Shown piece by piece: positions 33,859 through 54,167 of a stretch of 64,000 nucleotides of DNA. The notes beneath the pieces were generated by a model. The model ran no database searches. It saw nothing but the letters and a program-made list of their open reading frames with translations, and was not told where the DNA came from. Position numbers and translations under genes: made by a program. Origin of the DNA: Candidatus Poribacteria bacterium (GTDB lineage Bacteria; Poribacteria; WGA-4E; WGA-3G); assembly GCA_963665235.2 (NCBI GenBank), contig CAXXLX010000001.1, positions 3,136,001 through 3,200,000 of the forward strand. The letters run 5' to 3'. Numbering within the stretch: the stretch's first letter is position 1; each line of letters begins with the position of its first letter.

Positions 33859-35751
33859 CTACCACGGCTGCTTGTATGATGGCGCATTGACAAAACGTTC
33901 TGTTCCCACCTCCAACGCAATATGTGTGTTAGGCGGCAGATGAACTTGAAGATATGTGCCGTTAACCGCAACGTTGTTTTCACCGTTACCATTTTTGGTG
34001 CGCGCAGTTGTGAAATTATGCTCACCCATCGAGCCCGCTTGAACGATGACATCCCGTGCCTCAGTAGTACTGAGGTTTACGAGTTCTAGTTCGGTCGTAT
34101 CGTTTGTCAATTTAGAGACCAACGCTGCCACATCTGCTGGGAGCCCCGGTCGCTGCTGCTGTGGGTCAAAGTGTCGCACCCGTGTTACGAGCAAACCGCC
34201 GTTGTAATGCGGTAACGGACCACCACACGTGAGCTCAACTAGACCTTCGCAGGTAACGGGGTTACGTCTTTGAAAATAGGCATCTCCATATCCCGCCGGA
34301 TCTTCCTCATCGTTTTCCATATAGTTGAGTCGCTGCTGAACTTGCGATAGGTTATGATTGAGAATTGATTCGGGATATTCGGGAAAATCGCCTCGCATAT
34401 ATGCTAACCATCCGCCATCTCGTCCGCCTTGGTCTTTAGTGTGATGCCACGCGTTGATGTCAAATTTAGAGCCTGTCCGTTTGGCGATTTGGACTGCACG
34501 CTCCTGATCTGCGGCATCCATCGACATTGCCCATAGATGTGCTACATCAGAGGGATGCATCGGCATAAATTCGAACCAACCATCAATCTGTAGCGTTGTG
34601 TCATCCTCGTTTTTTATTGGATACTGCATCCACGGCCCAGGCGTATAGTTTGCAATTCCCGGATCGCCGTATTTCTGCGGTACATAAAGCTGATCGTTAT
34701 GGTCAATACCGTGCTGAATTAGGACATCAATTTGGGAACGCGGGAAGTCCATATATGTCAAATCGCTGTGAAGGAGTGCCGCGTTCTGTCCAGCTACGCT
34801 GACTGCCTGACCAACACTATGCCACCCATGAGGCCAACTCCAGCCATAACGAGAACCGTACCACTTGCCGTCCATGTGTTCCCCGATTATGCCCGAAATC
34901 CCGACGTTATCAGGTACGATGCCGTTGTTTTCCGCTGTGCGGCTAATCCATGCATCAACATATTCCTGCACCCACGCCTTATATTTTTCTTCGCCAGTGA
35001 ACATATAGGCGTTGGTAGCCAGGGTCGTCGCAGCGAGATTGCCGACTGCGTCTCCTTTTCCTTGCCGTTCAAAGATTACACGTCCCATCAGATCGCGTAA
35101 TTCTTGGTTTTCCAGCATCACATCCCGACTTGTGCAGCCTGGAACATCGATAAACGGCAAATTATAACCATTTGCGGGATAAAAAGATTCTCTTTCAAGG
35201 ATCCAAAATGCTGCTCCCTTACTGCCGTTCATCACACATTTGATGATTTTGTGTTGCGGGTCGTAATTCTGTGCCTCAGGGTCTTCGTTCATAAAGAATC
35301 CTGCGAATCGTTTGGCGCGTTCAGCATTCTTTGTATGTGTCGGCTCTGCCATGCAAAGCATATAAAACAGATAATTACCTTCGCTTTGGTGAAACCAGTC
35401 GTATCCCGGTTGATACTCCTTAACGACCATCGGATAGTCATGTCCTGAGCCGTATCTGGTCATGTCCTCCGTGATAACCTCAAATTCGGTTTGTGCATCT
35501 ACCAAGAACTGTGCATCTCCACCAAGCATATAGAAAAGCGGCCAGTTATGGAAACTCTCATAAGCATCGTCCAATCCATCAAAGCTTTGAAAATCTGGAT
35601 GCGTTGGCCAAAACAACGTTCCATCTGGACGTGTGTATTTTTTCAAAACTTGTGGTGCTGCGACGTTGATTTTGTCAATCAGTTCACGTTCGAGGGTTGC
35701 CCAGGTCGGCGGGGTTTGAACGCGGGTTTGCGCTTCAATTGTTGGAAACAT
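33859..35751 (-). CDS. Hypothetical 630-aa protein (possibly an alpha/alpha-barrel carbohydrate-active enzyme)
   Basis: Long ORF with GGAGG RBS; acidic/aromatic motifs DGLDDAYE, DWFH.SEG; function not recognised. Confidence 0.7.
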   Translation of the reverse strand: MFPTIEAQTRVQTPPTWATLERELIDKINVAAPQVLKKYTRPDGTLFWPTHPDFQSFDGLDDAYESFHNWPLFYMLGGDAQFLVDAQTEFEVITEDMTRYGSGHDYPMVVKEYQPGYDWFHQSEGNYLFYMLCMAEPTHTKNAERAKRFAGFFMNEDPEAQNYDPQHKIIKCVMNGSKGAAFWILERESFYPANGYNLPFIDVPGCTSRDVMLENQELRDLMGRVIFERQGKGDAVGNLAATTLATNAYMFTGEEKYKAWVQEYVDAWISRTAENNGIVPDNVGISGIIGEHMDGKWYGSRYGWSWPHGWHSVGQAVSVAGQNAALLHSDLTYMDFPRSQIDVLIQHGIDHNDQLYVPQKYGDPGIANYTPGPWMQYPIKNEDDTTLQIDGWFEFMPMHPSDVAHLWAMSMDAADQERAVQIAKRTGSKFDINAWHHTKDQGGRDGGWLAYMRGDFPEYPESILNHNLSQVQQRLNYMENDEEDPAGYGDAYFQRRNPVTCEGLVELTCGGPLPHYNGGLLVTRVRHFDPQQQRPGLPADVAALVSKLTNDTTELELVNLSTTEARDVIVQAGSMGEHNFTTARTKNGNGENNVAVNGTYLQVHLPPNTHIALEVGTERFVNAPSYKQPW

Positions 35752-36929: not shown

Positions 36930-37778
36930 ATGTCAAATAATTCACTCGTAAATTTGGGCGATCTATCAAAACCTGTGACTGTCCTTATCGAAAAAATATC
37001 GGAAGCAGTAGGTGGCATCGCCGCCCCTGGCCAAATCAAGCGAGTTGCTAAAGCGGAAGCTGAAGCTGCAATAATCAAGGCTCAATCTGAAATTGAGATA
37101 ACTGACCAGCACTTACGAGCTGTGCAGCGCAGAATTGAAGAGGATGCTCGACAGCAAAAGAACATAGAGGATATTACATCTAAGGCGATCCCTCATTTAA
37201 ACGAAGATGCCAATCCCGAAAATATGGATGACGATTGGATCGCTAACTTGTTTGATAAATGCCGGATAGTCTCTGACGAGGAGATGCAGAGTTTGTGGGC
37301 ACGCGTTTTAGCGACAGAGGCAAACACCCCTGGGACTTTGTCAAAAAGGACGGTCAACCTTCTTTCAGATTTCGACAAAAGCGATGCAGAACTATTTACT
37401 AAACTTTGCGGATTTGGTTGGATGATTGGGAATATTGTACCATTGGTGTTCGATGTTCAGGCAAACATCTATAACAGACATGGGATTAACTTTAATAAGC
37501 TGAGTCACCTTGAGGTTATTGGACTTATCCAACTTGGAGCCCCTACGGGTTTCAAACGGCTCGGTTTTCCTAAAAGAGGCATTGTGCATTATTATGGTAA
37601 GTCACTCTTGTTAGAAATGCCTAAGGATGCTAACAATGAACTTGATATTGGAAATACACTTCTCACAAAAATCGGACAGGAGCTCGCGCCAATATGCGGA
37701 AGCAACCCGGTGGAGGGCTTCTATGAATATGTGAAGGAGCAATGGAAGGAGTATTTGCCTGCAGCCGGGAAAGATTAA
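36930..37778 (+). CDS. DUF2806-like protein
   Basis: LIEKISEAVG..QIKR.AKAEA, RQQKNIE.I, DDDW...F...VSDEEMQ.LWA.VLA.E...PG..S.RT. Confidence 0.75.
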   Translation: MSNNSLVNLGDLSKPVTVLIEKISEAVGGIAAPGQIKRVAKAEAEAAIIKAQSEIEITDQHLRAVQRRIEEDARQQKNIEDITSKAIPHLNEDANPENMDDDWIANLFDKCRIVSDEEMQSLWARVLATEANTPGTLSKRTVNLLSDFDKSDAELFTKLCGFGWMIGNIVPLVFDVQANIYNRHGINFNKLSHLEVIGLIQLGAPTGFKRLGFPKRGIVHYYGKSLLLEMPKDANNELDIGNTLLTKIGQELAPICGSNPVEGFYEYVKEQWKEYLPAAGKD

Positions 37779-37897: not shown

Positions 37898-37920
37898 TCG
37901 CGAGCGAAGCTCGCTCCTAC
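37898..37920 (-). repeat. GTAG-type REP hairpin (GTAGGAGCGAGC-N-GCTCGCGA)
   Basis: Second copy at 61327-61349, degenerate copy at 43108-43132; its TAG is the stop codon of the R-M gene. Confidence 0.75.
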
Positions 37921-40900
37921 AGAGGAAGGGAAGGCAATCCCTTAACAATCTCCACCGTCTTTAAGCTGACGGTGATAACGCGGGCGATGAGGTCTACGAT
38001 GTACTGCGGTTCTGCCTCACGGTTCGGGTCATTGACAATGCCGCTCCGTTTGTCTACCTTGACACAATACTGATTAATTACCCACTCCAACGCGGAACGG
38101 GTGCCGAGTCGATACTCGTAAACCTCCGTGGGGATGCCATCCAACGTCAAGAAGTCGTTATATTTCAGCAGCGTCCTGTCTTTGTTGTATTTCGGCTGCG
38201 TTGTATCTTTAGAGAGTTTCATCTGCTCTACGCGCCAATCTACCCGCATTTCCGGTGTCTCAATATATTTCAGTTTATCGTATTTCGGAGCGGATTCGTA
38301 ATTGACGTGGAGGTCTGCTAATGCCGCACCAGCAGTAGCAAATCCCCAGAAATCCTCGGCGAAGGGGATATGCGGTAAATCGCGTTTGAGGTTCATCTCG
38401 TATTTTTCGCGATAGTCGGGATGGTGCAAAAGCCCGTAGGTATAATGGAAGATGTCCCATTTAGAGATGGTGTCATCCCCGTAGTGGATTCGGAATTCCG
38501 CCAATGCCCAATCGGTGATATTCTCTCGTCGGTTCGTGCCATCCTTATCGTAGGTGTAGAAGGGGAAACATTGGGAGCCACCTTGTGGCAACAAATCTAG
38601 AATTTTGTCTGTCATTAGGGCAAACATCGGCCACTCTCTCCCGACCTTAAGCCATATTACCCGATTTTCCATTTCTGTCTCAGGCGTTGGAAAGAAGTAT
38701 GGAAACAGATGAACGCAATTGTTCAGAACGCGGTCTAAGAACAGGTTGGATTTTGTAAAAGGGCGGTAGAGTGATGTCCGAACCTTGTTTTCTGTATATT
38801 CGGCATGTCTGCCGCGTTGTAAGTGCTGCCGTAATTCGCGATCCCACTTGATTTTCGTGTCATCATAAATCACAAAATCGCTAACATTTGTTTGCTGATT
38901 TTCTCGACGCTTCCACCTATCCATCTCTGCATTGTAAGTCTGAGTCATTCTCCGAACGTTCTCAGTCAGAGCATTTTGATTGAAGTTGTAAACCCACGCA
39001 TCGCGATTGGTTTTAATCCCATTACTATATGTTTTGAAAATCACATCTGTTGTTTCACCTTTAGCGGCTTTCGCTTGCTTAGTGCCAATTGGGGTAAAGG
39101 TGTTGAATTCGGCGTGAAGTCCCTGAGTGAGCCATGTATGTCTGCTATCTGGTTGAATGGATTGCCACTCAATACAGCCTATGTGTTGACGTGCATTCAG
39201 GAAATCAAATTTCTGTTTCTTTTTCCACGTCTCATCAGTGTGATAGTAAAAGACTTGGGTATTCCCTGGCGACTTCGCTCTCTTTTTCACAAATAAATTG
39301 ATACTCACCCCAACCCGAATGCCGAACACGTTTGCATCAGAGACCTTTAATCCTTTCCGGGCATTTCCGCCTAAATCTAGAAGATAGATTGCGGTGCAGT
39401 TTTCTGTGAGGTGTTTCCGCATGCCATCAAACGCCAATCCGTCGATAAAGCTGTTATTTGTAATAAAGGCAACCACGCCTTCCTCTCCAATTCTGTCCAA
39501 TGCCCATCGGATAGCTTTTATGTATGGGTCATAGAGGGCATTTTTGAGTGTTGCTTTGGAATCTACTGCGTAGGTTTCTGCAATCCGCTTGTCCATCGCC
39601 TCATATTTTCTATTTCTATTATTGTCGCTATCATTAACCTGCCCTGCATTATAAGGTGGATTGCCGATAACGACAAACATATCCGCAGCCTTCTGTCTTT
39701 TGACACGTTCCGTGTTTTCGCGTGTGAAGAGTTCCCCTTGCTGCTGTTCAAGCAGCTCAAACGTGTCGGCAAGGGCAATGCCTTCAAACGGCAGGTATGT
39801 CCCTGTGCGTTGGAAAAACTCCTGCTCGATGTTGAGGCTGGCGATGTAGTAGGGCAGGAGCATTACCTCGTTGCAGTGGAGCTCGTGACGATATTTCTCC
39901 TCTAACGCTGTGCCTTGAATGTCCTGCATGAGATGGACAATAAAATTGCCTGTCCCAACAAACGGGTCGATGATATGCACACCGGTATCCGACAACGCTC
40001 TATCGAAATAGGTTTCGAGGATATGCTCGACACTGTTTACCATGAAATCAACAATCGGTTGCGGTGTGTAGACGATGCCGTGTGTGTCTGCGACATCTTT
40101 GGAGAACCCCTGAAAAAATTTCTCATAAAATGTATTGAGGAAATGCTGTTTCTGGGAAAAGTCTTTGCAGAATGTCGATGCCTGCTCGATAGCAACATAA
40201 AACTGATCTAAAGGTTCAAGAAACACATCACGGCTTACTTCATGCTGCATGAGGGTGTAGCTGACATCTTCAATCTCGCGGGCGATAATGTTTCGACGGG
40301 TGAAGTCTGACCTATTGAAAACGGTACGGAAAATGCGCTCCGTGAGAATGTGTTGGATGAGCATCTCTTCGATGGCATCGCGTGAGAGGTCCGGGTTGAT
40401 TGCGGTGCGGCAGGTTTCGTAAAAATCGGTGAACGCTTTTTTGAACGCGGCATCTGTCTCATGGCGTTGGGCTATAAGTGTTTTCAACGCGTTTGCGAGG
40501 GCCGGCACATATTCTCTGAAATCGGTGACCGCAGCCTGCCAGTTGCCCAATGCGGGTGGGACATAAGAGAATAGGGCTTGAAGGGTATTAATCAAAAGCT
40601 TTGGGTCGGTAATGTCTACGTCAAAAACCTGCTCACCGTTCTGATAGAGGATACCGCGTTGTGGGTTTTGGAAAAGCGTATTATCGAACGGATAACCTGC
40701 CTCGCGTTTGTCCTGCACAGCCTTTTGGAGATTATCGTCTATATCCTTTGCTTCCCAATAAGCGAATGGCAGTCCGTATTCGTCAAGGATGACACCATCT
40801 ATGACGATACGTTTTCCCTGTGGCGTTTGCATCGCATATTGCGGGACGAGGGTGCCGTTGATCTGTTTGGCGCATCTATCCAGTAGGAAGGCAAACGGAT

Positions 40901-41006
40901 TGCTAACGGCACCTTCATGTATGATGTTGTGTTGGTCGTATTGCGCCAGGGATGCGTAGTAATCGCGGACGACTTTATGTGTAGGTTTGAGGTTGAGCTG
41001 TTCCAT
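37917..41006 (-). CDS. Single-chain restriction-modification enzyme (PD-(D/E)xK - N6-adenine MTase - type ISP-like specificity domain; no helicase)
   Basis: Start MEQLNLK at 41006; IDG...WEAKD, GIVYTP, DPFVGTG, GNPPY, YRPF, LADLHVNYE, RSALEW. Confidence 0.88.
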   Translation of the reverse strand: MEQLNLKPTHKVVRDYYASLAQYDQHNIIHEGAVSNPFAFLLDRCAKQINGTLVPQYAMQTPQGKRIVIDGVILDEYGLPFAYWEAKDIDDNLQKAVQDKREAGYPFDNTLFQNPQRGILYQNGEQVFDVDITDPKLLINTLQALFSYVPPALGNWQAAVTDFREYVPALANALKTLIAQRHETDAAFKKAFTDFYETCRTAINPDLSRDAIEEMLIQHILTERIFRTVFNRSDFTRRNIIAREIEDVSYTLMQHEVSRDVFLEPLDQFYVAIEQASTFCKDFSQKQHFLNTFYEKFFQGFSKDVADTHGIVYTPQPIVDFMVNSVEHILETYFDRALSDTGVHIIDPFVGTGNFIVHLMQDIQGTALEEKYRHELHCNEVMLLPYYIASLNIEQEFFQRTGTYLPFEGIALADTFELLEQQQGELFTRENTERVKRQKAADMFVVIGNPPYNAGQVNDSDNNRNRKYEAMDKRIAETYAVDSKATLKNALYDPYIKAIRWALDRIGEEGVVAFITNNSFIDGLAFDGMRKHLTENCTAIYLLDLGGNARKGLKVSDANVFGIRVGVSINLFVKKRAKSPGNTQVFYYHTDETWKKKQKFDFLNARQHIGCIEWQSIQPDSRHTWLTQGLHAEFNTFTPIGTKQAKAAKGETTDVIFKTYSNGIKTNRDAWVYNFNQNALTENVRRMTQTYNAEMDRWKRRENQQTNVSDFVIYDDTKIKWDRELRQHLQRGRHAEYTENKVRTSLYRPFTKSNLFLDRVLNNCVHLFPYFFPTPETEMENRVIWLKVGREWPMFALMTDKILDLLPQGGSQCFPFYTYDKDGTNRRENITDWALAEFRIHYGDDTISKWDIFHYTYGLLHHPDYREKYEMNLKRDLPHIPFAEDFWGFATAGAALADLHVNYESAPKYDKLKYIETPEMRVDWRVEQMKLSKDTTQPKYNKDRTLLKYNDFLTLDGIPTEVYEYRLGTRSALEWVINQYCVKVDKRSGIVNDPNREAEPQYIVDLIARVITVSLKTVEIVKGLPSLPL

Positions 41007-41079
41007 GAGAGTATAATAGCAGATGGAATAGTATAATGGGATCTCTAAGGAAACCTGACGGGCGAGGGGACCTCGCCCT

Positions 41080-41952
41080 TTAACCCCGCCATTGCACATC
41101 GATGCTGGTGTATCCGTGGGTATATTGGTGCAAATGTGATGGTAGATCTGATAGGAACTGCTGCCCCTCATTCGGAATTTCCCAGGGAATATCGATGGCG
41201 TGGGCACGGTCCCGAAAACCGATGGCGCACGACAACCGGATGTCGTCAATCTGGTTGGGGAATGCTGCGTGATATGTCCGGTGCGCGAACACAATCATAT
41301 CCCCCGGGTTTGTGAAGAGCGGTACGACTCCCGGTACATCGAAATCTGTATATGCCTTTTCCGCTTCCCCTACCTTATAAAAGGAACGTCTATCCGCTGT
41401 CATGTTGAACCCTTCTGGCCCTTCCCAATTCTCTACATGAGAGTCCGCGATTACGCATAAGCCGCCGTGTTCCGGGCGCGAGCCTGTGAGATAAAACCAT
41501 TTTCCGGAGGGCCACAATCCGCGGTTCAGCACGTCGCCGGAATTTTTCGGGGGCGCGTTTGAAAAACCGCACCAATCGGTGTGCCATGCAACAGGATGTG
41601 AGCCGGGCATCCGGATGATAGCGGCGGAGCGGTGTACAGTCAATTCGTCTGTACCGATGAGATGACGATGGATTTTCATGAAGGGTTCGTATTCAAGGAG
41701 CGTCCACGCGCCTGCCCCAGATTCAATCCAAGCGTGACGGGTACGACTCTGTCCATGCGTCAATTCTCTGTTCGGATCGGTTCCATCGAAAACTGCCTGT
41801 TTTGCGGTGTCGACCCACTCGGGGGGCAACACATCTTTGATGATTGCAAACCCATGTGCTTCTAGACAGTCGGACATGAGAGAGAGCTGAGCGGTTTCAA
41901 ATTCATAATCGTATTCAAGTTCCGGTTTCTGAATTTTCAAGTAGTGTTCCAT
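41080..41952 (-). CDS. Phytanoyl-CoA dioxygenase family (Fe/2OG) protein
   Basis: WHTD (HxD), GGLCVI..SH, PGDMIVF.HRTYHA, R. Confidence 0.85.
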   Translation of the reverse strand: MEHYLKIQKPELEYDYEFETAQLSLMSDCLEAHGFAIIKDVLPPEWVDTAKQAVFDGTDPNRELTHGQSRTRHAWIESGAGAWTLLEYEPFMKIHRHLIGTDELTVHRSAAIIRMPGSHPVAWHTDWCGFSNAPPKNSGDVLNRGLWPSGKWFYLTGSRPEHGGLCVIADSHVENWEGPEGFNMTADRRSFYKVGEAEKAYTDFDVPGVVPLFTNPGDMIVFAHRTYHAAFPNQIDDIRLSCAIGFRDRAHAIDIPWEIPNEGQQFLSDLPSHLHQYTHGYTSIDVQWRG

Positions 41953-42311: not shown

Positions 42312-43154
42312 GTGAACACCTTGATCGATCGGAAATTGTTTCGGAAGAAATTCTTCCTCCATCTTATTAGCGATTCTTCTGTCATCTTCCCATTCGCTGC
42401 GGGTGCCCTCGGTATTTTTATATCTTGGGTGTTTAATCTGGAACCGAGAATTCTGTATCTATTCGGGAGCATGGTCGTTGGGCTCGGGTTGCCAATCGGT
42501 GCGCTGATAACGAAGTGGGCATCCGGTACAGATGATGTCGCCAAACGGGTTCACGATGAAATGTTGCAAGCAGTAAATCAGCAGCAGGAAGCGGAGCTGA
42601 ACACGCTCCGTGAGCAGTTAGAGGCGGATGGCGACGCTCGAACGGAACAGATGCTGGAGGAGCTTCGCGACTTGCATCAATCGTTTCAGGAGGAGGCGAA
42701 AGAAAGCGGATGGTTGGGAAACCTGCCGATTAGCGTCAATGCTGAAATTACGGACAAGGTGTCAGAACTTTTTGCTCAAGCTGTTCAGTGTTTGAAAGAC
42801 ACGTTGAAGATGCAGGAGAAATCGAGAAACACGCAATCGCAAACTATCAGAAAAGTGCTTAGGCAGCATAGGGAGAAACTGCTCTCGGATGTGCAACAAA
42901 CGATTGTCCAGCTGGCACATCTCTATACCCGTGTGCTTACGCTCGAGCCGGATAGCAATGAGACGGAGCTCTCGCGACTTCGGACGGAACTTGACGAAAG
43001 TTTGGATTTTGCCAAGAAGGTTGACGCGCAGATACGTGAATTCACGCCTGATACTACTGACACGCTGAGTCAATCGGATGACTCAGTGGCGGATTCTCAC
43101 ACGATAGTCGCGGGCCGGGAAGCTGCCCCTACAGAGGAGGGCAAGCTGCAATAA
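42312..43154 (+). CDS. Two-TM membrane protein with cytoplasmic coiled-coil domain
   Basis: Hydrophobic segments at about aa 24-43 and 47-67, then helical heptad-rich region. Confidence 0.75.
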   Translation: MNTLIDRKLFRKKFFLHLISDSSVIFPFAAGALGIFISWVFNLEPRILYLFGSMVVGLGLPIGALITKWASGTDDVAKRVHDEMLQAVNQQQEAELNTLREQLEADGDARTEQMLEELRDLHQSFQEEAKESGWLGNLPISVNAEITDKVSELFAQAVQCLKDTLKMQEKSRNTQSQTIRKVLRQHREKLLSDVQQTIVQLAHLYTRVLTLEPDSNETELSRLRTELDESLDFAKKVDAQIREFTPDTTDTLSQSDDSVADSHTIVAGREAAPTEEGKLQ

Positions 43155-43208
43155 TAGTGGATGTGTATAGCACACACTTAATCTTACATTGAGTTAGGAG
43201 AAACTGCG

Positions 43209-43751
43209 ATGGCAAAGAGCATTACCCGTTTTTTCAAAGTTGCTTGGTATACGATTACCGCTTGTAGGAACAAGCAGGTCGAGAGACTGATGGAAAATCC
43301 TGAAGCGGTGCGCGGATTGTATGAAGACGTTATCCGCTACAAACTGAGTCGTATCCAACGTTATAAGCTGGGGATTGGGCGCCTCATCCCGTTTGTTGAA
43401 CAGAAGAAAAATTTGCTTAATGAGCTCACAAACGAGATTGCGCTGTTAGAAAAGCAGAAGGCGGATGCAATCGCTAAATCGGAAAGCACGGCTGCTGAGC
43501 TCCAAAAAGCGGGCATGTCAGAAGAGGAGATTGAACAGCATCCGGATTCCATCGACCTTGCCTTGGCGGAAAAAAAGGTTCGCGTTGCTAAAGTTGAGCA
43601 CGAGCTTGAACGTTTGCAAAACGATATTGAAGACCATAAACTTCAGCTAGCCAGTCTTCATCGGGATTTGGAAAGGTTTAAGAAGGAGCAGGCTGAGGCG
43701 GTTGCTGAGCTGATTCAGGAAGAGAACGACAGGAAGTCGCGAAGACGTTAG
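43209..43751 (+). CDS. Shortened PspA/IM30-like coiled-coil paralogue
   Basis: Aligns by eye to 43992-44840 (ITRFFK, MENPEAVRG.YED, IQRYK); internal deletion and missing C-terminus. Confidence 0.65.
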   Translation: MAKSITRFFKVAWYTITACRNKQVERLMENPEAVRGLYEDVIRYKLSRIQRYKLGIGRLIPFVEQKKNLLNELTNEIALLEKQKADAIAKSESTAAELQKAGMSEEEIEQHPDSIDLALAEKKVRVAKVEHELERLQNDIEDHKLQLASLHRDLERFKKEQAEAVAELIQEENDRKSRRR

Positions 43752-43819
43752 CAGGTGATTTGTAAAGAAAGTTGATGTGCGGCTAGCTACATGAATTCGC
43801 CACAATTTGTTTCAAGTAT

Positions 43820-43912
43820 CAGGACGGACGCAAATAGCACAGATTTTTCGGGTTTTCAGAGAGGTTTACCCCCCCCTAACCCCCCGCGGGCGGGGGGAAT
43901 GCGTAAGTCCTG
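43820..43912. mobile_element. MITE, TIR CAGGAC..ACGCA/TGCGTAAGTCCTG, TSD AAGTAT
   Basis: TSD at 43814-43819 and 43913-43918; internal C7/G6 hairpin; related copy 48756-48848. Confidence 0.8.
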
Positions 43913-43991
43913 AAGTATGTAATTTTTGTTAGGCTCCAGAGATGGATGCTTCTAAGTCACTTAATTTCACATTTAGTCAGGAGGAATTGAC

Positions 43992-44840
43992 ATGGCAAAC
44001 GGCATTACCCGTTTTTTCAAAGCTATCTGGTATACACTTACTGGTCGTGCACACGAGCAGGCTGATAGGATGATGGAGAATCCTGAGGCGGTGCGCGGGG
44101 CTTATGAAGATATTATCCGCGATAAGCAGGGAAATATCCAACGTTATAAGAACGCGATTGGGCAACTTATCGCGCTTGTTGAACAGAAGAAAGGCTCCCT
44201 TAATCGTCTCACCAATGACATTGATTTGTTAGAGAAGAAGAAAGCAGGGGCAATCGCTAAGGCGAAACGGGTCGCTGCTGATCTGCAAAAGTCCGGGGCA
44301 GCAGACCTAGAAATTAAGCAAGATCCGGAATACACCCGCTGTGTAGCTGCCTATAACGACTTTCACTCTACTTTGGAGGAGAAACATTCTCACGTTGCTG
44401 ATTTAGAGGAGGAGATTGAACGTGCACAAAACGACATTGAATCTCACAAAGTTCAGATAACTGGGCTCCATCGTGATTTGGGGAAGATTAAGACAGAACA
44501 GTCTGAAGCGGTGGCTGACCTGATTACTGCCCGTGAGCAGGAGGAAATCTCTGATATGTTATCCGGTATCAGCATGGATGGCACTTCAGCGGAGTTGTCT
44601 CGTATGCGCGAAATTCGGGAAAAAGCGAAGGGTCGCTCAAGGGTTGCCCAGGAACTTGCTGGCACAGATTCACGCGCTGAAGAGGAAGAGTTTCTCGCTG
44701 AAGCACGCAGCTCAGCGGCCTCTGAAGAATTTGACTCGCTTATTTTCGGAGCACAACAGACCGATACGACTGAGATAATCGAAGACGTGCAGCCAACACC
44801 TGAAACCGAATCCGAGACCGAATCGGAATTGCCGCTGTAA
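43992..44840 (+). CDS. PspA/IM30 (ESCRT-III-like) family coiled-coil protein
   Basis: Amphipathic N-terminal helix (ITRFFKAIW), ENP hinge, long helical hairpin, EL.RMREIREKAKGR.RVAQEL, acidic tail. Confidence 0.7.
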   Translation: MANGITRFFKAIWYTLTGRAHEQADRMMENPEAVRGAYEDIIRDKQGNIQRYKNAIGQLIALVEQKKGSLNRLTNDIDLLEKKKAGAIAKAKRVAADLQKSGAADLEIKQDPEYTRCVAAYNDFHSTLEEKHSHVADLEEEIERAQNDIESHKVQITGLHRDLGKIKTEQSEAVADLITAREQEEISDMLSGISMDGTSAELSRMREIREKAKGRSRVAQELAGTDSRAEEEEFLAEARSSAASEEFDSLIFGAQQTDTTEIIEDVQPTPETESETESELPL

Positions 44841-44958
44841 GTTGATTTGTCGGGTTTCTCTGTGTTCACAATCCGAAACTCTTTTGAAACTTAGACAGAC
44901 ACGCCCAAGTTTCAAAAGAGTTTCCTATAAACTGGATAAAGGGAGGGAGGAAAGCACT

Positions 44959-46755
44959 GTGAATGTTTACACAGAGCATCAAGATAAAACACCGGACAAC
45001 TGGGAAGTTGTCTTGGAACGTTTGAGGGAGCTTGAAACCCGTGTGCAGCGAATTAATGAATCCAAAAAGCGCGCCCCGGTTCCACCCGAAACCCTTGCAG
45101 CGTTCCAAGAACTTCATAATACGTTGGTTGACGAGACTTGCAAGGCGTGGCAAACATCACAGCAAGATGAAGCATTGGATACCTTAAACAGTGTTCTAGA
45201 TAATGCCTTTGTTGAGGCGATGTGGCTATCCCTTGAGCAGTACCCTGCAATTGTTCATCACCCGGAAATTGAAAATTTAGATACAGCAGGCTCTAAAATT
45301 TTCACATGTTTTATACCGGATGCTCCAACAGATATTACCGCACGCGAGAATCTAAAATCAAAACTTCAACAAATATTCAATATAGATGCTAAAAGATTAG
45401 AGAAATTGAACCGAGGGCTCGCTAAGCGGACCGCTCCGCTCCAGCATCGACATCAAATTATGCGGTGTTTAGAGACCCGTTTCAATTTGGTATCTAACAA
45501 CCCCGATTTGGATGCGGATGTCCTTCGGCTCTTTCAGTACATATATCCCGGGTCACCTTTTGAAGTCGGTGAGGTGAAGTTGGTGAAAACTGCCTCTGCC
45601 CTCCTTTTCTGCGTCCCTTCAGCGGTAAAGGCGGCACCTGCTGATATGCACAACGACTCCAAAAATGCTACACCGAAGGACACGAAACAAACCAAAACCC
45701 AACTTAAGAAGGACAGATACGAACGATTTCTCCAGGAAATTTGGAAGGTAGAACCGTTTGCACACTTTCCTGTATTCGGGACCTTCAACGCGGAACGTCT
45801 TGAACTCACATTCCGTGAACAGATTGCTAAAGGGACGGAGCTGTCTGTAGAATTGATTACGGCAACCCTAACGCGGATGATAGGACTGCTGCCATTAGAA
45901 GAACTTGACAAATATCTCATCCATGATACATGGGGGCACCAGTGGCAGGAAACTTTACTCGATTTTGAGGAGCCTTATACAGAATTATCCGGTTTTAAAC
46001 GGCCGTTATCCCTTACCGAAACCGCTTCTGTTTTCGGGGAAGAGACCTCGTTCGTTGAAGCTTTTGTCAAAACATCGACAGGAGACGTTCAACTTGATGC
46101 AGAAAAGCTGCAGCGGTTCATTGATGCGGAGCTTTATGAACGTTTCATCATTGCATTTACGCCTATTCTCGCTGAAATGTTGGCGGATGTTGTGGAATAT
46201 AAGTTTTTAGAACTATATCCTGAGCAGGCACATCTCCTGCCGAGTTCCTCGCTGCTTAAGGATTTTCCGAGCAAATTAGATTTGACGCTCACTGACCTCC
46301 GCGGATGCTTCGTAGAGGCATCCGAAGCGTTCCAGACTTGGGTGAGCTCCGAGGCGGCTAAACACCGATTAAGTATGGAAATTTGTGAAAAACTTGATAT
46401 TCCGAGCAGTGATGCGCTGGAACAGGTGCTTGAAGAGGCGGTGCAACTCTGTAAGAGGCAGCTCGATGGGTTTTATCAACCGGAGTGGTTTTGGGAGAAA
46501 ACAGCGGACAATTGCTTGAAACTGAACGCGTTTAGCTTCACCGCCCTTAACTTTCTCCGAATTCATATTGCCTTACTCCAAACTTACGAGGCTTTATCTC
46601 AAATCGGGACGCGGCACGGTTTCAAGGACGCACTTGTGTTGGCGATGGGCACCTTTTTTGAACTAGAACCGCAACGGCATATATGGCACCTTGACCAATT
46701 TTTAACCGAGGGGTTTCTGCCGCGATGGAAAAAATTGGCTGAAGCCGGCGTATGA
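44959..46755 (+). CDS. Hypothetical 598-aa helical protein with an HDxxGH motif
   Basis: GTG start 44959 after GGAGG; IHDTWGHQW and AEMLAD motifs. Confidence 0.75.
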   Translation: MNVYTEHQDKTPDNWEVVLERLRELETRVQRINESKKRAPVPPETLAAFQELHNTLVDETCKAWQTSQQDEALDTLNSVLDNAFVEAMWLSLEQYPAIVHHPEIENLDTAGSKIFTCFIPDAPTDITARENLKSKLQQIFNIDAKRLEKLNRGLAKRTAPLQHRHQIMRCLETRFNLVSNNPDLDADVLRLFQYIYPGSPFEVGEVKLVKTASALLFCVPSAVKAAPADMHNDSKNATPKDTKQTKTQLKKDRYERFLQEIWKVEPFAHFPVFGTFNAERLELTFREQIAKGTELSVELITATLTRMIGLLPLEELDKYLIHDTWGHQWQETLLDFEEPYTELSGFKRPLSLTETASVFGEETSFVEAFVKTSTGDVQLDAEKLQRFIDAELYERFIIAFTPILAEMLADVVEYKFLELYPEQAHLLPSSSLLKDFPSKLDLTLTDLRGCFVEASEAFQTWVSSEAAKHRLSMEICEKLDIPSSDALEQVLEEAVQLCKRQLDGFYQPEWFWEKTADNCLKLNAFSFTALNFLRIHIALLQTYEALSQIGTRHGFKDALVLAMGTFFELEPQRHIWHLDQFLTEGFLPRWKKLAEAGV

Positions 46756-46895
46756 AGTTGGCTATTGGCTATTGGCAAGAGGTCTCTGACATCGGTCAAA
46801 AACCTGCTTAGAATCACAATGTCTTGCTATTTGCTAATCGCTAATCGCCATTTGCTAATTTGTGGCAATATCTCTCTTTGGAGGAGGAAAGAACA

Positions 46896-48738
46896 ATCGC
46901 TGTTAAAGATCCGACCTACAAATTCCGTACTGAAGCGGGAATGCTTATTAATTCCGGTACTTCGCGCAGCATCGTCCTTCATGGAAATATCCATGACCTC
47001 TTTTTTATTCAGGAGGAAGCCGCGGAGGATTATATACCGCTCGTTCCATTCCTTACACGGAGTTGGAACATTCCCGGCTTTATCCTAATAGTCTATGAGC
47101 TCAACGGGCCGCTCCGCTTTCTGGACAGTAGTAGCAGGGAGAAGCTGAGGCAGGCTTTCAACACCTGGCGAAGGGTTGCTGAATCAACTCCAAGTAAAAC
47201 GACTAGTCTTTTCTCGCTGTCCGACAAGTTGGAAAGTTCACATCCAAAATCGGATACCTCTGATGACCTATTTGAGCAATATCTCAACGATGCTATTGGG
47301 AGCCCGACGCTGGCACTTGAGCTTCTCCGTCAATTCTGTCTGATTTCCCGGATGACAAACACCCGTGGGGAAAAATTGCTACAGGAAAAATTGCTCATCA
47401 TTATTGAGGCGACCGATATGCTTCTCCCCGAAGGTGAAATCCGCAGCTTGAGTTTGCCAGATAGACACCGAATCAGCATCGTCCAAGATTGGATTTCGGA
47501 TTCCGATTTCATGAAGGGGACAGATACGGTTGTCTTTGTTAGCGAGTCCAAAAGTCTTGTGAACTCGCGCGTCATGCGACTTCCACAGGTGGTTAGCGTT
47601 GAAGTTCCTGCACCACCCCTAGAGGCACGGAAACATTTTATTTCATGGTTTAACAGAACCCAAAAACCTGCGAAAAAAGAACTAAACCTCTGGGGTAGCC
47701 AAACACAACTTGCGATGCTAACGGCAGGATTATCGCTTCAGGCGTTGCGGCAGCTGCTCGTTTCGGCATGCTATTCCGGTGAAAAGCTGCGTCCGGAGAC
47801 CGTCATTGAAAAAGTCTCTGAGTTTATACAAGCGCAGCTGGGTGAAGATGTCGTTGAATTCAAGAAACCGGCGCACAGCCTTAAAGATATTGTCGGCAAT
47901 TGCAACCTGATTGAATTCCTGAAGACGCAACTCATTCCGCGTATCACCTCTACTGGGCAGGATGCTATCCCCGGCTTGAGCGTTTGTGGTCCCATCGGCA
48001 GTGGAAAAACCTTTATCTTTGAAGGCCTTGCAGGGGAGCTTGATATCCCTGTACTTGTGCTTAAGAACATTCGCAGTATGTGGTTCGGGCAGACAGATGT
48101 CATCTTTGAACGTCTCAGACGATTGTTAATGGCACTCGTCAAGGTGTTAATTTTTGTCGATGAGGCGGATACACAGTTCGGTGGTGTCGGTCAGGATGCA
48201 CATAGCACAGAGCGTAGGCTCACCGGAAAGATACAGGCGATGATGTCTGACCCGCAGCTACGTGGTAATATCACCTGGCTGCTGATGACAGCGCGTATCT
48301 ATAATCTCTCGCCGGACCTTCGCAGAGAGGGACGAGTTGGCGACATCGTGATACCTGTCCTTGGATCCGATGGGTGAAGACCGTGAGACATTTCTCCGAT
48401 GGACGCTCAGCAACGTTTTCGGTGGCGATATTCCGGATGAGACGTTTGAATGTCTGCTTGCCCAAACCGAAGGTTATTCCGCAGCAAGTTTCGCGTCGCT
48501 TCGTGCTGACCTTGAGGCTGCCAGAAACCGCAAAGGTGACTTGTCTGTAGATGAAATTGTTGAGGTTATCTCCGATAGAATTTTGCCGAATATCGGTCCA
48601 ATTCGGCGTTATCAAACCTTGCAAGCGTTCCTGAATTGCACCCGGAAATCGCTTCTTCCGAGCGACTATACCCCCGAAATTCGCAAATCGTGGCTGGAGC
48701 AGATTGCCCAACTTGAAGCGATGGGGGTTAGGGGGTAA
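46896..48738 (+). CDS. Classical-clade AAA+ ATPase with degenerate N-terminal AAA-like domain; +1 frameshift at about 48361 (sequence error or pseudogene)
   Basis: Walker A GPIGSGKT, pore loop RSMWFGQT, Walker B FVDEAD, SRH DLRREGR; IPVL|DPMGEDR joins across frames; in-frame ATC 8 nt after GGAGG. Confidence 0.8.
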
Positions 48739-48755
48739 TACCATTTTTATTAATT

Positions 48756-48848
48756 CTGGACTTACGCAAATAGAACGGGTTTTTTCGGTCCTTGCAGAGG
48801 TTACCCCCCCTAACCCCCCCGCAAGCAGGGGGGAATGCGTAAGTCCTA
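48756..48848. mobile_element. MITE of the GGACTTACGCA/TGCGTAAGTCC family
   Basis: TIRs and TAATT direct repeat on both sides; similar to 43820-43912. Confidence 0.7.
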
Positions 48849-49091
48849 TAATTATTCTATCATTACCGGTTGTTAGAAAGGAAACGGAGAACGACACAAA
48901 CTGGAAGTTTATGCTACAAGAAAGAGACATTTTCAATTAGAAGCAGAGGTTACCCCCCCTAACCCCCCCGCAAGCAGGGGGGAATGCGTAAGTCCTATAA
49001 TTATTCTATCATTACCGGTTGTTAGAAAGGAAACGGAGAACGACACAAACTGGAAGTTTATGCTACAAGAAAGAGACATTTTCAATTAGAA
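48794..49091. repeat. Perfect 149-bp tandem duplication
   Basis: 48794-48942 identical to 48943-49091. Confidence 0.9.
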
Positions 49092-51110: not shown

Positions 51111-54100
51111 CTATTTTTCAAAGTTGAAATGAAGCATACCTTGGTTTTCTGTGCCTACATATAACGTGTTCCGCTCAGCGGCGAGGGAGGTCACGCTATC
51201 CGGTATCTCTGAGACAACCTGTTGCCACGTGCCATTTTCCAAGCGATAGACACCTGTCTTTTCGGTAACACCATAAAGGGTTGTGCCATCAACAGCCAAG
51301 TGCTCCATGATAAGGTTCGTCCCCGTTGCATCTGTGACAGGATGCCAACCTCTTCCGTTAATGGATGTGGCGACCCCCGCGTCAGTTGCTACATACACCG
51401 TGGGCCCGGCAACCCCAATTTCTTTGAAAGTTTTAGCGGGAAATGGCAGAGCCGGTGTGAAATCGATCCAATTATTTCCTTCGTTCAACGATACGAAGAG
51501 GTGTCCATCGCGTTTACCGGCGTAAACGGTGTTGCCTGAAACCGCAAGTTTGAGCGTTTTTCTCGCTATGTCCGGAGAAAGTTCAACGGTTTCCTCCAAG
51601 CCGGTGTCGCTCCATTCTGTATCCCCCCGCTTCCACCGGAAGAGTTTAAAGTTGTATTCCATATAAAACGTATCGTCACTAACAGCAAATGGGCCCCCGG
51701 TGAATCCTAATTCGACATGAAGCATCGCCTCCGGGCTATAAGGATTCTGTTGCATATCCCCTTGTGCTAACTGTTTGAAGAATTGGGCTGCGCCTGGAAA
51801 CCGATTTGGCAAATGTTCAATACGCTTCTTCTGATATGGGCTAGGCGGTCCTCCCCTTATTTGAAATAATTTTTCCATTAATGGTCTTGCGTTAAAGCTA
51901 GGCATTCCTTGGATAGGGGCAATTGTCCTTCCATCTGTAGTGATACGATATAGAAGTGTTTTTTCACCCACGCGGAAATCTCCCCCTTTTGCATAGAGAA
52001 TCCCACCGGATTTGATTATGTGAGTAATAACGGGTGGTTCGTCCCTATTAGGTGTTGTCATCGGTATTTCCATTTGAACCCTCTTCCAAGATTTACCCGC
52101 ATCTGTAGTTTTTACTAGTGCATCTTCAAATGTTGCGTAGAGAATCGGATGCCTATTTTGTGCAGTATCGCTTCCCTTATATACAATAAGATTATCTATA
52201 AGCATCTCATCCTGAACGATATTCACTCTGTTCCAGGATTTGCCGCCATCAGCAGTTCGATGGAGTCCATCATTGCTATTGAGATAAAAAACATGTTCAC
52301 TCAACGCCACAGCAGTGGAATTTCCGGAGCAAAGGGGTATTGTTAAAGGAGAAGTACTCGGGGATTCTGGCGGCAGCCATGTATCTCCGCTATCGGTAGA
52401 GCGGACCAGCCCCCGTTCCATCATCAGAAACGTTCCCCCTGCAGCGACAAGGGTGAGTCTGGGCGGCCATCCCTTTACGGACCATGCATCTGTTGGGGTT
52501 ATATCTGTCCATGAATTTCCATAGTCCATCGAACGGAATAGCCACCAGGTCCGCCGCCGTCCCTCCGATGCTTCCCACGGCTCGATTTCTACTGTTGCCA
52601 TTACATAGAGCCGCTCTTTAGTAGCTGTAACCGAATAAGGCACAATTGCCTTAGCTATTGGAAATTCTAAGCGTTGCCAGCTATTGGCGTTCCAGCGATA
52701 AAGTCCTGTCTCGGTTGCAGCAAACAGTGTGTTTGGCATCGCTGTGAAAGAGGGATAGGGGTACCCCCCAGGCAATTCATCCATTTTCATTTTCTTCCAG
52801 GTCTTACCGATGTCCGTGGAACGGAATACACCTCTATCTCCTCTAAAAACGATGTAAAATGCTTCTTCCGTTAGTGTCAGTTCATACGGGGCCCAATCTT
52901 CTGCCAATCCCTCCTGCCATTGGTAAACTGAACGCCACGTTTTGCCCCCATTTTTTGAAGTGTAAAGTTCATTGGCTAGAACGATGTAAAAGGTATCCTT
53001 CCACGCTCCCAGCAGCGGTAGAGGCGTTTTGTCACTCCAGGAAACATTGATAGCTGAATGCAGGTCGCAGACATGCTCCCATGCGTTATCATCAGCTTCA
53101 TTTCGTTTGTAGATGTTTCTACCAATAAGGACGTAAAGTTTGCCCTCAGTTGTCGTAATTAAAGCGTGTGCCTGACTCCCTCTGATAGGTTCAGACGGTA
53201 TCCACTGCTGTTTGGGAGTAGAAACATCTTCTCCTTCCGCCTGTGCGGCCGCCAATAACATTGTCTCCGGTTTTTGTCCGTTATTATCGCTTTTACCGGG
53301 TGCGTTTGCGTTTCCAAGCCGGTTTCGGACATCCGGTTTCATTTCAAGATTGCGGACAAGCGGTGCATCAATAATGTCTACCGTCGTCTCAGCTTGTGCG
53401 TTCAAACTGTAAGGTTGTTGAAAACGTGCTAAGTATTGACTGCCTATACCGAGCATCAGCAAGAGCAGGATGGCACTTGTAGCACTTATCATCCATGGCA
53501 CCAGGGGTTTACCCCCGGAAGGTACAGCGGGTTTCAGGTGTGCGACCTCGCGCATGATATTGTCGGTCAGATGCGGTGAGAGCTGGAAATGGTCAAGGGC
53601 TTCTCGTATCATTGTCTCCTCCCTTTGCAAGCGTTGCTGTGCCCTGCGGAGCCGGCTTCTAATCGTATTTGCGGATACGCCTAAGAACGCCCCGATTTCG
53701 GTACTAGACATCTCGCTGAAGTAATGCAACGTAATGACGGTGCGTTCACTCTCCGGTAGTTTTGCGAGCAACTTTTTGACAACTTCGCGTTGTGCTTCCC
53801 CTGCGATTTTTGCGCGTTCTTGGACGACATATTCGGAATAAACATCTGTTTGTATCAAGTTTGTCTCCGTGTCCTCGTCTTCGAGCGGTTGTGTTTGTAT
53901 CCGTTTTTTGCGGAGCCAGGTAGAACAGAGGTTGCTTGTAATGACATAGAGCCAGCCCGCAAACTGTTTCGGATTTTTCAGGGTATGAAGTCTTTTATAC
54001 ACCTTGAGAAATGCATCCTGTGTGATTTCTTCTGCAATGTGGAAGTCGCCTATTCTTCGCCAGGCGAGTGTGTGAACCTGCTTTTGGTATTTTTTCACAA

Positions 54101-54167
54101 GCGTAGCGAACGCATTCTCATCCCCCGCAAGGACGCGCTTTATCAGTTCAACATCTTCGTTTTTCAT
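51111..54167 (-). CDS. ECF sigma factor fused to a TM helix and an extracytoplasmic BNR/Asp-box beta-propeller
   Basis: Sigma2 (AF..LVKKYQ, AEEITQD.F, FAGWLY), sigma4 (LPESER, EIGAFLGVS.NT..SRL.RA), TM at about aa 222-242, repeated S.D.G.TW. Confidence 0.9.
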   Translation of the reverse strand: MKNEDVELIKRVLAGDENAFATLVKKYQKQVHTLAWRRIGDFHIAEEITQDAFLKVYKRLHTLKNPKQFAGWLYVITSNLCSTWLRKKRIQTQPLEDEDTETNLIQTDVYSEYVVQERAKIAGEAQREVVKKLLAKLPESERTVITLHYFSEMSSTEIGAFLGVSANTIRSRLRRAQQRLQREETMIREALDHFQLSPHLTDNIMREVAHLKPAVPSGGKPLVPWMISATSAILLLLMLGIGSQYLARFQQPYSLNAQAETTVDIIDAPLVRNLEMKPDVRNRLGNANAPGKSDNNGQKPETMLLAAAQAEGEDVSTPKQQWIPSEPIRGSQAHALITTTEGKLYVLIGRNIYKRNEADDNAWEHVCDLHSAINVSWSDKTPLPLLGAWKDTFYIVLANELYTSKNGGKTWRSVYQWQEGLAEDWAPYELTLTEEAFYIVFRGDRGVFRSTDIGKTWKKMKMDELPGGYPYPSFTAMPNTLFAATETGLYRWNANSWQRLEFPIAKAIVPYSVTATKERLYVMATVEIEPWEASEGRRRTWWLFRSMDYGNSWTDITPTDAWSVKGWPPRLTLVAAGGTFLMMERGLVRSTDSGDTWLPPESPSTSPLTIPLCSGNSTAVALSEHVFYLNSNDGLHRTADGGKSWNRVNIVQDEMLIDNLIVYKGSDTAQNRHPILYATFEDALVKTTDAGKSWKRVQMEIPMTTPNRDEPPVITHIIKSGGILYAKGGDFRVGEKTLLYRITTDGRTIAPIQGMPSFNARPLMEKLFQIRGGPPSPYQKKRIEHLPNRFPGAAQFFKQLAQGDMQQNPYSPEAMLHVELGFTGGPFAVSDDTFYMEYNFKLFRWKRGDTEWSDTGLEETVELSPDIARKTLKLAVSGNTVYAGKRDGHLFVSLNEGNNWIDFTPALPFPAKTFKEIGVAGPTVYVATDAGVATSINGRGWHPVTDATGTNLIMEHLAVDGTTLYGVTEKTGVYRLENGTWQQVVSEIPDSVTSLAAERNTLYVGTENQGMLHFNFEK

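Follow-up and report, generated by a model that had tools for sequence, protein, structure and literature searches.

A reduced Poribacterial version of the PspA/tandem-AAA operon and its candidate role in PspA subunit extraction

Do bacteria possess a dedicated motor that takes PspA-type polymers apart? The question is raised by a small gene cluster in the genome of a sponge symbiont, a Candidatus Poribacteria bacterium (NCBI GenBank assembly GCA_963665235.2). The cluster lies on the + strand at positions 42312-48738 of a 64,000-nucleotide stretch of contig CAXXLX010000001.1 (contig positions 3,136,001 to 3,200,000; hereafter the window, whose own numbering is used for the locus) and comprises five co-oriented open reading frames (ORFs), an arrangement that a sequence-only reading of the window had reported and that its ORF list bears out. 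That reading took the cluster for a candidate bacterial ESCRT-III/Vps4-like module, pairing PspA-like proteins with a classical-clade AAA ATPase. A 2025 review, in the part of its text available to us, holds that a Vps4-like ATPase appears absent in bacteria (PMC7619361), and the disassembly of PspA and Vipp1 polymers is described as unknown both there and in the accessible portion of a second source (PMC7619361; PMC11746142). In Makarova et al. (2024; PMC10936438), as far as the available text goes, ESCRT systems that have both vps4 and ESCRT-III are limited to archaea and eukaryotes, and Vps4 is traced to Cdc48 through the loss of one domain.

By gene content and homology, the window cluster is a reduced Poribacterial version of a widespread PspA/tandem-AAA operon. 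We hypothesize, with a rough probability of 55%, that its ATPase grips the acidic tail and terminal peptide of the full-length PspA-like protein and extracts PspA subunits from a membrane polymer through the pore of its second AAA domain. The sequence-only reading was right in kind, and overstated both the likeness to Vps4 and the novelty of the find.

The PspA-like protein and the tandem-AAA ATPase

Two PspA-like paralogues are present, as had been reported, and they are 58% identical. The longer one, PspA_full (43992-44840, + strand, 282 amino acids (aa)), had been assigned to PspA by eye, and profile comparisons uphold the assignment. The protein matches positions 3-208 of the 220 in PF04012 (PspA_IM30) at E 2e-7 and 31.3 bits, where the gathering cut-off is 33.9. 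A precomputed PF04012 match exists for 119 of its 120 closest relatives, and among 21 diverse members of the operon PspA family PF04012 is the commonest family, matching 10 of them at E ≤ 0.01. A profile of these 21 members (A9), searched against the PDB, placed Vipp1/PspA in the top four positions (E 6.9e-6 to 1.5e-5), with the ELAGxD stretch included. When A9 was aligned by hhalign with 22 canonical PspAs of the phylum, the probability was 96.2% (E 2.4e-9) over 215 collinear columns from the N-terminal helix on, against 0.8% for a reversed-sequence control. These comparisons identify PspA_full as a divergent PspA homologue, collinear over nearly its full length.

At the N-terminus of PspA_full, residues 3-20 form a predicted amphipathic helix with a hydrophobic moment of 1.38 (0.65 in shuffles), a value reached by 1.8% of 1000 shuffled sequences, and R7, F8, F9 and W13 of this PspA-like helix are invariant in Poribacteria. 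At the C-terminus, the operon PspAs have a linker that varies and a conserved EFDxLxxG segment, and after these a terminal [LI]P[ELVI] peptide, which is found in 18 of the 21 diverse members (counting one with an added A) and in none of the 22 canonical PspAs. PspA_full itself has an acidic linker and ends in ...SELPL; the strongly acidic tail noted earlier is real, with 11 acidic and no basic residues between positions 246 and 282.

The second paralogue, PspA_short (43209-43751, + strand, 180 aa), lacks everything past about residue 180 of PspA_full, that is the C-terminal third with the tail, together with nine internal residues, and has no Pfam match when searched alone. Similar extra paralogues occur in 19 of 80 Poribacteria loci, these being the best 80 of a contig profile scan with one genome per species (78 labelled Poribacteria and two labelled 'uncultured bacterium'). 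All 15 that were aligned end soon after the 'LSGIS' region and are tail-less, PspA_short being the shortest, and several extra paralogues of related genomes contain in-frame stops. PspA_short is probably a decaying duplicate.

Two canonical PspAs (80.4 and 57.7 bits) are also encoded elsewhere in the window's genome; an ABC ATPase adjoins one of them, and the other carries an RDD domain as a fusion. The fused protein (locus L001, G000:C1:1389562-1393179, G000 being the window's genome) is 363 aa long, carries an N-terminal RDD membrane domain and matches PF06271 and PF04012. Related genomes contain tandem arrays of two to four PspA open frames of 350-420 aa that resemble it, the domains of these arrays being unchecked.

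The ATPase gene encodes two AAA domains in tandem. D2 (47853-48738, + strand) comprises an active classical-clade AAA domain, a lid and a conserved C-terminal extension; it matches PF00004 at E 1.4e-13 and carries the Walker A motif GPIGSGKT, the Walker B motif IFVDEADT, the pore loop RSMWFGQTD and the second region of homology PDLRREGRVG, so that the aromatic pore loop and the arginines of the second region of homology described for this protein both stand. In D1 (46878-47852, + strand, its start set by the orthologue P0002), 'VLHGNIHDLF' stands where a P-loop would be, a Walker-B-like 'IIIEATDMLLP' is present, and in the family alignment the corresponding 'IIIEgAD' falls on Walker B. Residues 1-325 of the family align with residues 326-619 in hhalign at a probability of 95.9% (E 5.8e-9, 184 columns). 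Because these first ~325 residues align with the protein's own AAA domain, the N-terminus is a degenerate AAA domain and not an MIT or other adaptor domain, and by sequence the ATPase is a tandem of a presumably inactive D1 and an active D2.

The proposal of a Vps4-like build does not survive this comparison. Cdc48/p97 is the best match of the ATPase in the PDB (E 3.4e-19 over two domains), and AFG2, NSF, katanin and Vps4 are also found. At the level of the AAA domain, katanin MEI-1 scores 41.8 bits, Cdc48 D1 39.2 and Vps4 35.7. As judged from these scores the ATPase belongs to the classical AAA clade and has no special tie to Vps4, since Vps4 scores no closer than Cdc48 D1 or katanin. NCBIfam models remain far under their cut-offs (CDC48, 26.9 bits with a cut-off of 802; CdvC, 22.5 with a cut-off of 650; FtsH likewise).

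Full-length orthologues of the ATPase measure 543-646 aa, and P0002, which is 94% identical to the window protein, has 619. A size of ~610 aa had been given for a single open frame, which the window does not contain: the ATPase is read there as two overlapping frames, 46860-48377 (505 aa) and 48361-48738 (125 aa), separated by one extra base at ~48359-48364. P0002 is continuous over the junction (...IPVLDPTGEDRETFLRW...). The extra base (CCTTGGATCC in the window, CCTT-GATCC without it) is absent from five of five close relatives and from the contigs of all four public sequencing runs, each run represented by one covering contig; those from X1, X2 and X3 are ≥ 99% alike, and the fourth comes from the RNA library X6. 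The X1 contig drops the C at 48359, and X2, X3 and X6 drop the G at 48363. Both one-base-shorter versions read IPVLDP, the leucine codon being TTG or CTT. Because the contigs of all four runs lack the extra base, the split frame is probably an assembly artefact, and because the runs drop different bases that nevertheless give the same IPVLDP, the sequences suggest that two alleles with synonymous leucine codons were collapsed in the assembly.

It is alternatively conceivable that the module is broken in the window's strain, with a true frameshift that deprives the ATPase of its lid and C-terminal part, and with PspA_short as a pseudogene. The assembly does give 505 and 125 aa, PspA_short is truncated with an internal deletion, and the related genomes hold extra paralogues with in-frame stops. 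Set against this are the contigs from X1, X2, X3 and X6 and the fact that neither ATPase frame shows a further stop or loses conservation before the junction. X1-X3 may include the source sample of the window, and contigs drop rare variants, so that a true frameshift in this strain keeps a small probability. We consider a broken module quite improbable.

Conservation and history of the pairing

A PspA-like gene lies upstream of the ATPase gene on the same strand in 77 of the 80 Poribacteria loci; the gap is < 400 bp in 52, contains unk598 (the gene that also separates the two in the window) in 18, and has other spacings in seven. In the three remaining loci, where no PspA-like gene is seen, the upstream sequence is < 3.2 kb long and starts inside unk598. 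Across 176 genomes of the phylum, the ATPase was found in 129 (E ≤ 1e-40) and the PspA-like protein in 121 (E ≤ 1e-25); within the window's family, G000 apart, the counts are 111 and 109 of 111. The ATPase gene therefore counts, on presence in the searched genomes, as a core and not a variable gene of one Poribacteria family. The two genes have identical genus patterns with two exceptions, namely four genera with only a 32-36% identical ATPase and two fragmented g5 genomes without a PspA-like match, and at least 15 genera of the phylum lack both.

The pairing extends beyond the phylum. Outside Poribacteria, the ATPase has matches in 206 clusters (50% identity) at E ≤ 1e-30, and many of these span its full length. 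A metagenome scan returned 58 loci with ATPases 29-69% identical to the query P0306, and in each of 23 of these a protein encoded on the same strand as the ATPase matches the Poribacterial PspA-like profile (E 2e-84 to 3e-9). We treat as informative the 29 loci whose upstream sequence reaches 5.3 kb or more (ATPases 29-48% identical to P0306). Of these, 19 have a PspA-like gene and 26 an ABC permease with an ABC ATPase: 17 loci have PspA and ABC genes, two PspA only, nine ABC genes only and one neither. Homologues 58-76% identical to one long-operon ATPase are labelled Pseudomonadota, Deltaproteobacteria, Sumerlaeia, Planctomycetota, Acidobacteriota, Hydrogenedentes, Verrucomicrobiota and CSSED10-310, and one ATPase cluster member carries the label of a Nanoarchaeota metagenome-assembled genome. 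Cross-phylum synteny is thus drawn from metagenome contigs and from the names attached to ATPase homologues. The proposed link between the two genes could have failed in two ways, and did so in neither: the homology to PspA runs along the whole length of the coiled-coil protein, and the ATPase gene is syntenic with it in other genomes (77 of 80 Poribacteria loci and 19 of 29 metagenome loci).

By Pfam, the usual gene order in metagenome loci is PBP(NMT1)-OmpA (~526 aa), TM2cc (the two-transmembrane gene that opens the window cluster), the PspA-like gene, a substrate-binding-protein (SBP)-like lipoprotein (~370 aa), a permease, an ABC ATPase and the tandem AAA gene. This full ABC form is retained in three Poribacteria loci (L074, L078 and L079). 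L082 carries PBP-OmpA, TM2cc, PspA, a relative of unk598 (39% identical) and the ATPase. Genus g6 has the system divided between two loci, one with PspA and the AAA gene and one with PBP-OmpA, vWA, PBP-OmpA, TM2cc and unk598. In the window's genome the genes from TM2cc to the ATPase have stayed in one cluster, with neither the ABC importer nor the PBP-OmpA gene in the window, and a PBP-OmpA protein 81% identical to the g6 one lies with a vWA protein ~1.9 Mb away (G000:C1:1280361-1281968, locus L146). Poribacteria thus lost the ABC genes and kept the adjacency of PspA and ATPase.

A quick maximum-likelihood search with 56 ATPases, midpoint-rooted and with support from the Shimodaira-Hasegawa-like approximate likelihood ratio test (SH-aLRT) only, groups all 14 Poribacteria rows as a single clade (SH-aLRT 100). 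Loci with ABC genes only are scattered in this tree among those with ABC genes and PspA (five changes for five rows), which suggests that the neighbourhoods without PspA are secondary. Two variants of the long operon were also seen: L108 adds a vWA-domain protein and has a HAD-like fragment upstream of the ATPase, and in L111 the gene next to the ATPase on its upstream side encodes a polynucleotide kinase/HAD phosphatase-like protein.

Accessory genes, repeats and flanking regions

What do the other genes of the cluster contribute? TM2cc (42312-43154, + strand, 280 aa), directly upstream of the first PspA-like gene, had been described as a protein with two transmembrane segments, and hydropathy agrees, with two N-terminal peaks (residues ~22-43 and ~47-68) and, after them, helices predicted to form a cytoplasmic bundle. 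Its AlphaFold2 model is all helical, with a mean predicted local distance difference test score (pLDDT) of 66.6. Homologues of TM2cc adjoin the PspA-like gene in 21 of the 80 Poribacteria loci and in many metagenome loci. Membership of TM2cc in the ESCRT-III/Snf7 family was examined and drew no support: 24 members gave no Snf7 or PspA match in Pfam, no match was obtained in the PDB, hhalign against the PspA profiles gave probabilities of 0.7% and 0.1%, and fold searches returned only generic helical bundles, leaving neither sequence nor fold evidence for such a relationship. The best VIA Z of 12.1, to designed helical proteins, is at noise level for helical bundles.

The gene between PspA_full and the ATPase, unk598, occupies an ORF of 44842-46755 on the + strand and is read from the GTG at 44959, the start being inferred from the point at which orthologue alignments begin. 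Read in this way it encodes 598 aa of an unrecognised family, as previously stated, with no match in Pfam, NCBIfam, PADLOC or PHROGs and no usable match in the Atlas. It is an all-helical orphan with an invariant LIHDxWGHQWQE motif. Its profile found nothing below E 0.07 in the PDB, and its AlphaFold2 model, made from a 13-row alignment with a mean pLDDT of 58.5 and too poor to interpret, found nothing in the PDB at E ≤ 0.001 with Foldseek. A relationship to the ~370-aa SBP-like protein in the same position of relatives was tried and rejected (hhalign probability 0.1%). The protein occurs in 79 of the 176 genomes of the phylum, was found only in Poribacteria among the data searched, and is encoded at the place where relatives carry the ABC importer.

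Between PspA_short and PspA_full lies a 148-bp intergenic insertion without strand (43765-43912) that contains a palindrome, with its core at 43860-43911, resembling repetitive extragenic palindromic (REP) elements, GGTTACCCCCCC-TAA-CCCCCC...GGGGGG-AATGCGTAAGTCCT. A near-copy follows the ATPase gene at 48800-48847, and its opening bases recur at 48950, the end of the stretch read. In the contigs of all four public runs, 43765-43912 is replaced by 23 other letters. Summed contig depth at the repeat climbs from ~20 up to 2300, a figure that includes contigs of other organisms and is not a copy number; because depth is raised there, the repeat is probably high-copy. The gap between unk598 and the ATPase gene (46757-46860) contains a distinct short tandem motif, where depth is raised as well.

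Scans for promoters and terminators performed at chance level, with 12 promoters found (8.9 ± 2.7 in shuffles) and nine terminators (8.6 ± 2.6). Contigs of the RNA library X6 span parts of TM2cc, PspA_full, unk598 and the ATPase gene, an observation that does not show transcription. Pfam detected no pspB, pspC, pspF or liaRS among the five cluster proteins and two flanking genes, the genome at large not having been searched.

The flanking genes are unrelated to the cluster and encode a PhyH dioxygenase, a Type IIG restriction-modification enzyme, a LolA-like protein and an FGE-sulfatase protein. The restriction-modification gene lies just upstream on the - strand (37917-41294; PADLOC REase_MTase_IIG, E 2e-240); near it are a DUF2806 protein (36930-37778, + strand, E 3e-37) and a 630-aa protein without a Pfam match (33859-35751, - strand). 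Only one of the 80 other loci has a relative of the restriction-modification gene beside the operon (L080, in two tandem copies). Farther downstream, an unusual sigma factor fusion is encoded at 51111-54167 (- strand): in this 1018-aa protein an N-terminal ECF sigma-70 part (regions 2 and 4) is joined to beta-propeller repeats of the Sortilin/BNR type.

A candidate extraction cycle among known systems

How might these parts work together? The amphipathic N-terminal helix would attach PspA_full to the inner membrane, where the protein would polymerise, and TM2cc may nucleate or anchor the polymer. A hexameric ATPase would engage PspA through the flexible acidic tail and the conserved [LI]P[ELVI] peptide, and the engaged subunit would be threaded through the aromatic pore loop of D2, with subunit extraction and recycling or remodelling of the polymer as the predicted outcome, as Vps4 does with ESCRT-III. 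The tail-less paralogues could serve as subunits on which the ATPase finds no hold, or they could just be duplicates in decay. unk598 would be a lineage-specific accessory that took the place of the ancestral ABC importer.

A stronger version of this proposal makes the ATPase a true bacterial functional counterpart of Vps4 that recognises the [LI]P[ELVI]-COOH peptide and extracts tail-bearing subunits, the tail-less paralogues being ATPase-resistant. We regard this version as doubtful. If it were true, bacteria of many phyla would have an ATP-driven ESCRT-III cycle based on a Cdc48-like motor, independent of or before archaeal Vps4, and in Poribacteria the cycle would be uncoupled from the ancestral ABC importer.

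Several observations weigh against subunit extraction from a PspA polymer. The score of PspA_full lies under the Pfam gathering cut-off (31.3 and 33.9 bits), and A9 had no hhalign match to a single canonical PspA of the same genome, the 22-sequence target being needed. We infer its ESCRT-III fold from the homology to PspA/Vipp1. The ATPase has no MIT domain, its N-terminal 325 residues being AAA (no MIT profile was run), and we could not equate the [LI]P[ELVI] peptide with a known MIT-interacting motif. In the informative metagenome loci, the ABC permease and ATPase genes stand beside the AAA gene more often than PspA does (26 and 19 of 29), and the nine ABC-only loci, representing about five lineages when near-identical loci are counted together, have no PspA within 5-7 kb.

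The metagenome counts are an argument for placing the client of the ATPase elsewhere, in the co-encoded envelope and transport machinery (the ABC importer, PBP-OmpA or vWA), which the ATPase might assemble, extract or quality-control, with PspA only stabilising the nearby membrane. The permease and ABC ATPase genes lie directly upstream of the AAA gene in those 26 loci, the window's genome still encodes PBP-OmpA and vWA at another locus, and Ravi et al., in the text available, tie the system to solute transport too (PMC11237479). We nevertheless judge a transport client unlikely: the ABC genes were lost in Poribacteria and the adjacency of PspA and AAA genes was kept in 77 of 80 loci, the scatter of ABC-only loci in the quick ATPase tree makes them look like secondary rearrangements, and only operon-type PspAs have the conserved terminal peptide. 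A regulator would fit the tight adjacency and the matching distribution as well as a substrate does, and PspA could instead be a regulator or adaptor of the ATPase, as E. coli PspA binds PspF and inhibits it, with membrane stress freeing the ATPase to act on other proteins. PspA-PspF is an established regulatory pair of PspA with an AAA+ protein according to the accessible part of the 2025 review (PMC7619361); PspF, however, is described in the available text of Ravi et al. as an enhancer-binding AAA+ protein with a DNA-binding domain (PMC11237479), and the window ATPase is neither enhancer-binding nor equipped with such a domain. It is a classical-clade protein of the unfoldase type, with an aromatic pore loop. 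Unfoldase substrates typically offer a disordered acidic tail that ends in a conserved peptide, a pattern that the tail and end peptide of PspA_full would fit. A regulatory role for PspA thus seems improbable to us.

A third reading takes its cue from the restriction-modification gene that is the upstream neighbour on the opposite strand (PADLOC E 2e-240) and sees an anti-phage defence or abortive-infection module in a defence island, an option that had been left open from the sequence. We find it hardly credible. PADLOC lends it no support, the best match of any operon protein being IetA at E 1.5e-4 in a generic AAA region and the others standing at E 4.8e-4 or weaker on coiled coils. PHROGs returned nothing for TM2cc, PspA or unk598, and the ATPase (as P0002) matches three families of unknown function there (best E 8.4e-16). 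A restriction gene accompanies the operon in only one of the 80 other loci, and the ATPase is present in 111 of 111 family genomes. We retain ATPase-driven extraction of PspA subunits as the preferred reading.

The PspA/tandem-AAA pair is a ready-made candidate for the ATP-driven disassembly of PspA polymers in bacteria, and it occurs in sequences labelled as at least eight different bacterial phyla, classes or candidate divisions. Simple testable predictions follow from the terminal peptide and from the paralogues that lack the tail. Our literature search found no work on PspA in Poribacteria and no experimental study of a bacterial pair of PspA and AAA unfoldase, only an in-silico paper and reviews.

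Compared with the ESCRT-III/Vps4 systems (CdvB/CdvC; Snf7/Vps4), the window cluster, known here from its genes, likewise places an ESCRT-III-superfamily protein beside a classical-clade AAA protein with an aromatic pore loop, and shares a flexible C-terminal tail with a short conserved end peptide as well as paralogous subunits. Unlike Vps4 and CdvC, its ATPase carries a second AAA domain and lacks an MIT domain, and Vps4 is not its closest solved relative; unlike Snf7 systems, its polymer protein belongs to the PspA branch. The tandem D1-D2 architecture is that of Cdc48/p97/VAT, and the pore loop SMWFGQ resembles SMWFGE of Cdc48 D2, whereas D1 lacks a P-loop, no N-terminal substrate-recognition domain is present, and the protein measures ~610 aa compared with ~750-840. 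With E. coli PspA-PspF the cluster shares the tie between a PspA-family protein and an AAA+ protein, going by the part of the review at hand (PMC7619361). PspF, in the corresponding part of Ravi et al., activates transcription as an NtrC-type protein that has a DNA-binding domain (PMC11237479), in contrast to the unfoldase-type ATPase of the window. Unlike E. coli Psp, the locus has no PspB or PspC by Pfam, and the genome's canonical PspAs are encoded elsewhere.

The closest known system is the one that Ravi et al. (2024, mSystems, PMC11237479) described in silico, so the pairing itself is not new, nor is the analogy to ESCRT-III and Vps4. The available text of that paper sets out a gene dyad of PspA and 'inactive AAA + classical AAA', places PspA and transmembrane-bearing Snf7 homologues with the ATPase in longer operons that include an ABC ATPase, a permease and a PBPB-OmpA protein, and proposes ATP-dependent membrane remodelling comparable to Snf7/Vps4. 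The window agrees with this description in having a PspA gene beside a two-AAA ATPase with a degenerate N-terminal copy and a transmembrane coiled-coil protein upstream, and metagenome and deep Poribacteria relatives carry the ABC permease, ATPase and PBP-OmpA. The type was matched by description, the example accessions AEY64321.1 and OGG56892.1 not having been mapped onto the window family. The transmembrane partner of Ravi et al. is a Snf7 homologue, which TM2cc is not confirmed to be. Unlike the described type, the window has unk598 in place of the ABC importer and PBP-OmpA, plus an extra tail-less PspA paralogue. Relative to the text of Ravi et al. available to us, the [LI]P[ELVI] peptide, the tail-less paralogues and the Poribacteria-specific unk598 are new details. 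The value of the find lies in one more well-documented example and these few additions: the window cluster is a real, ordinary member of a known, computationally described type, with lineage-specific features of its own.

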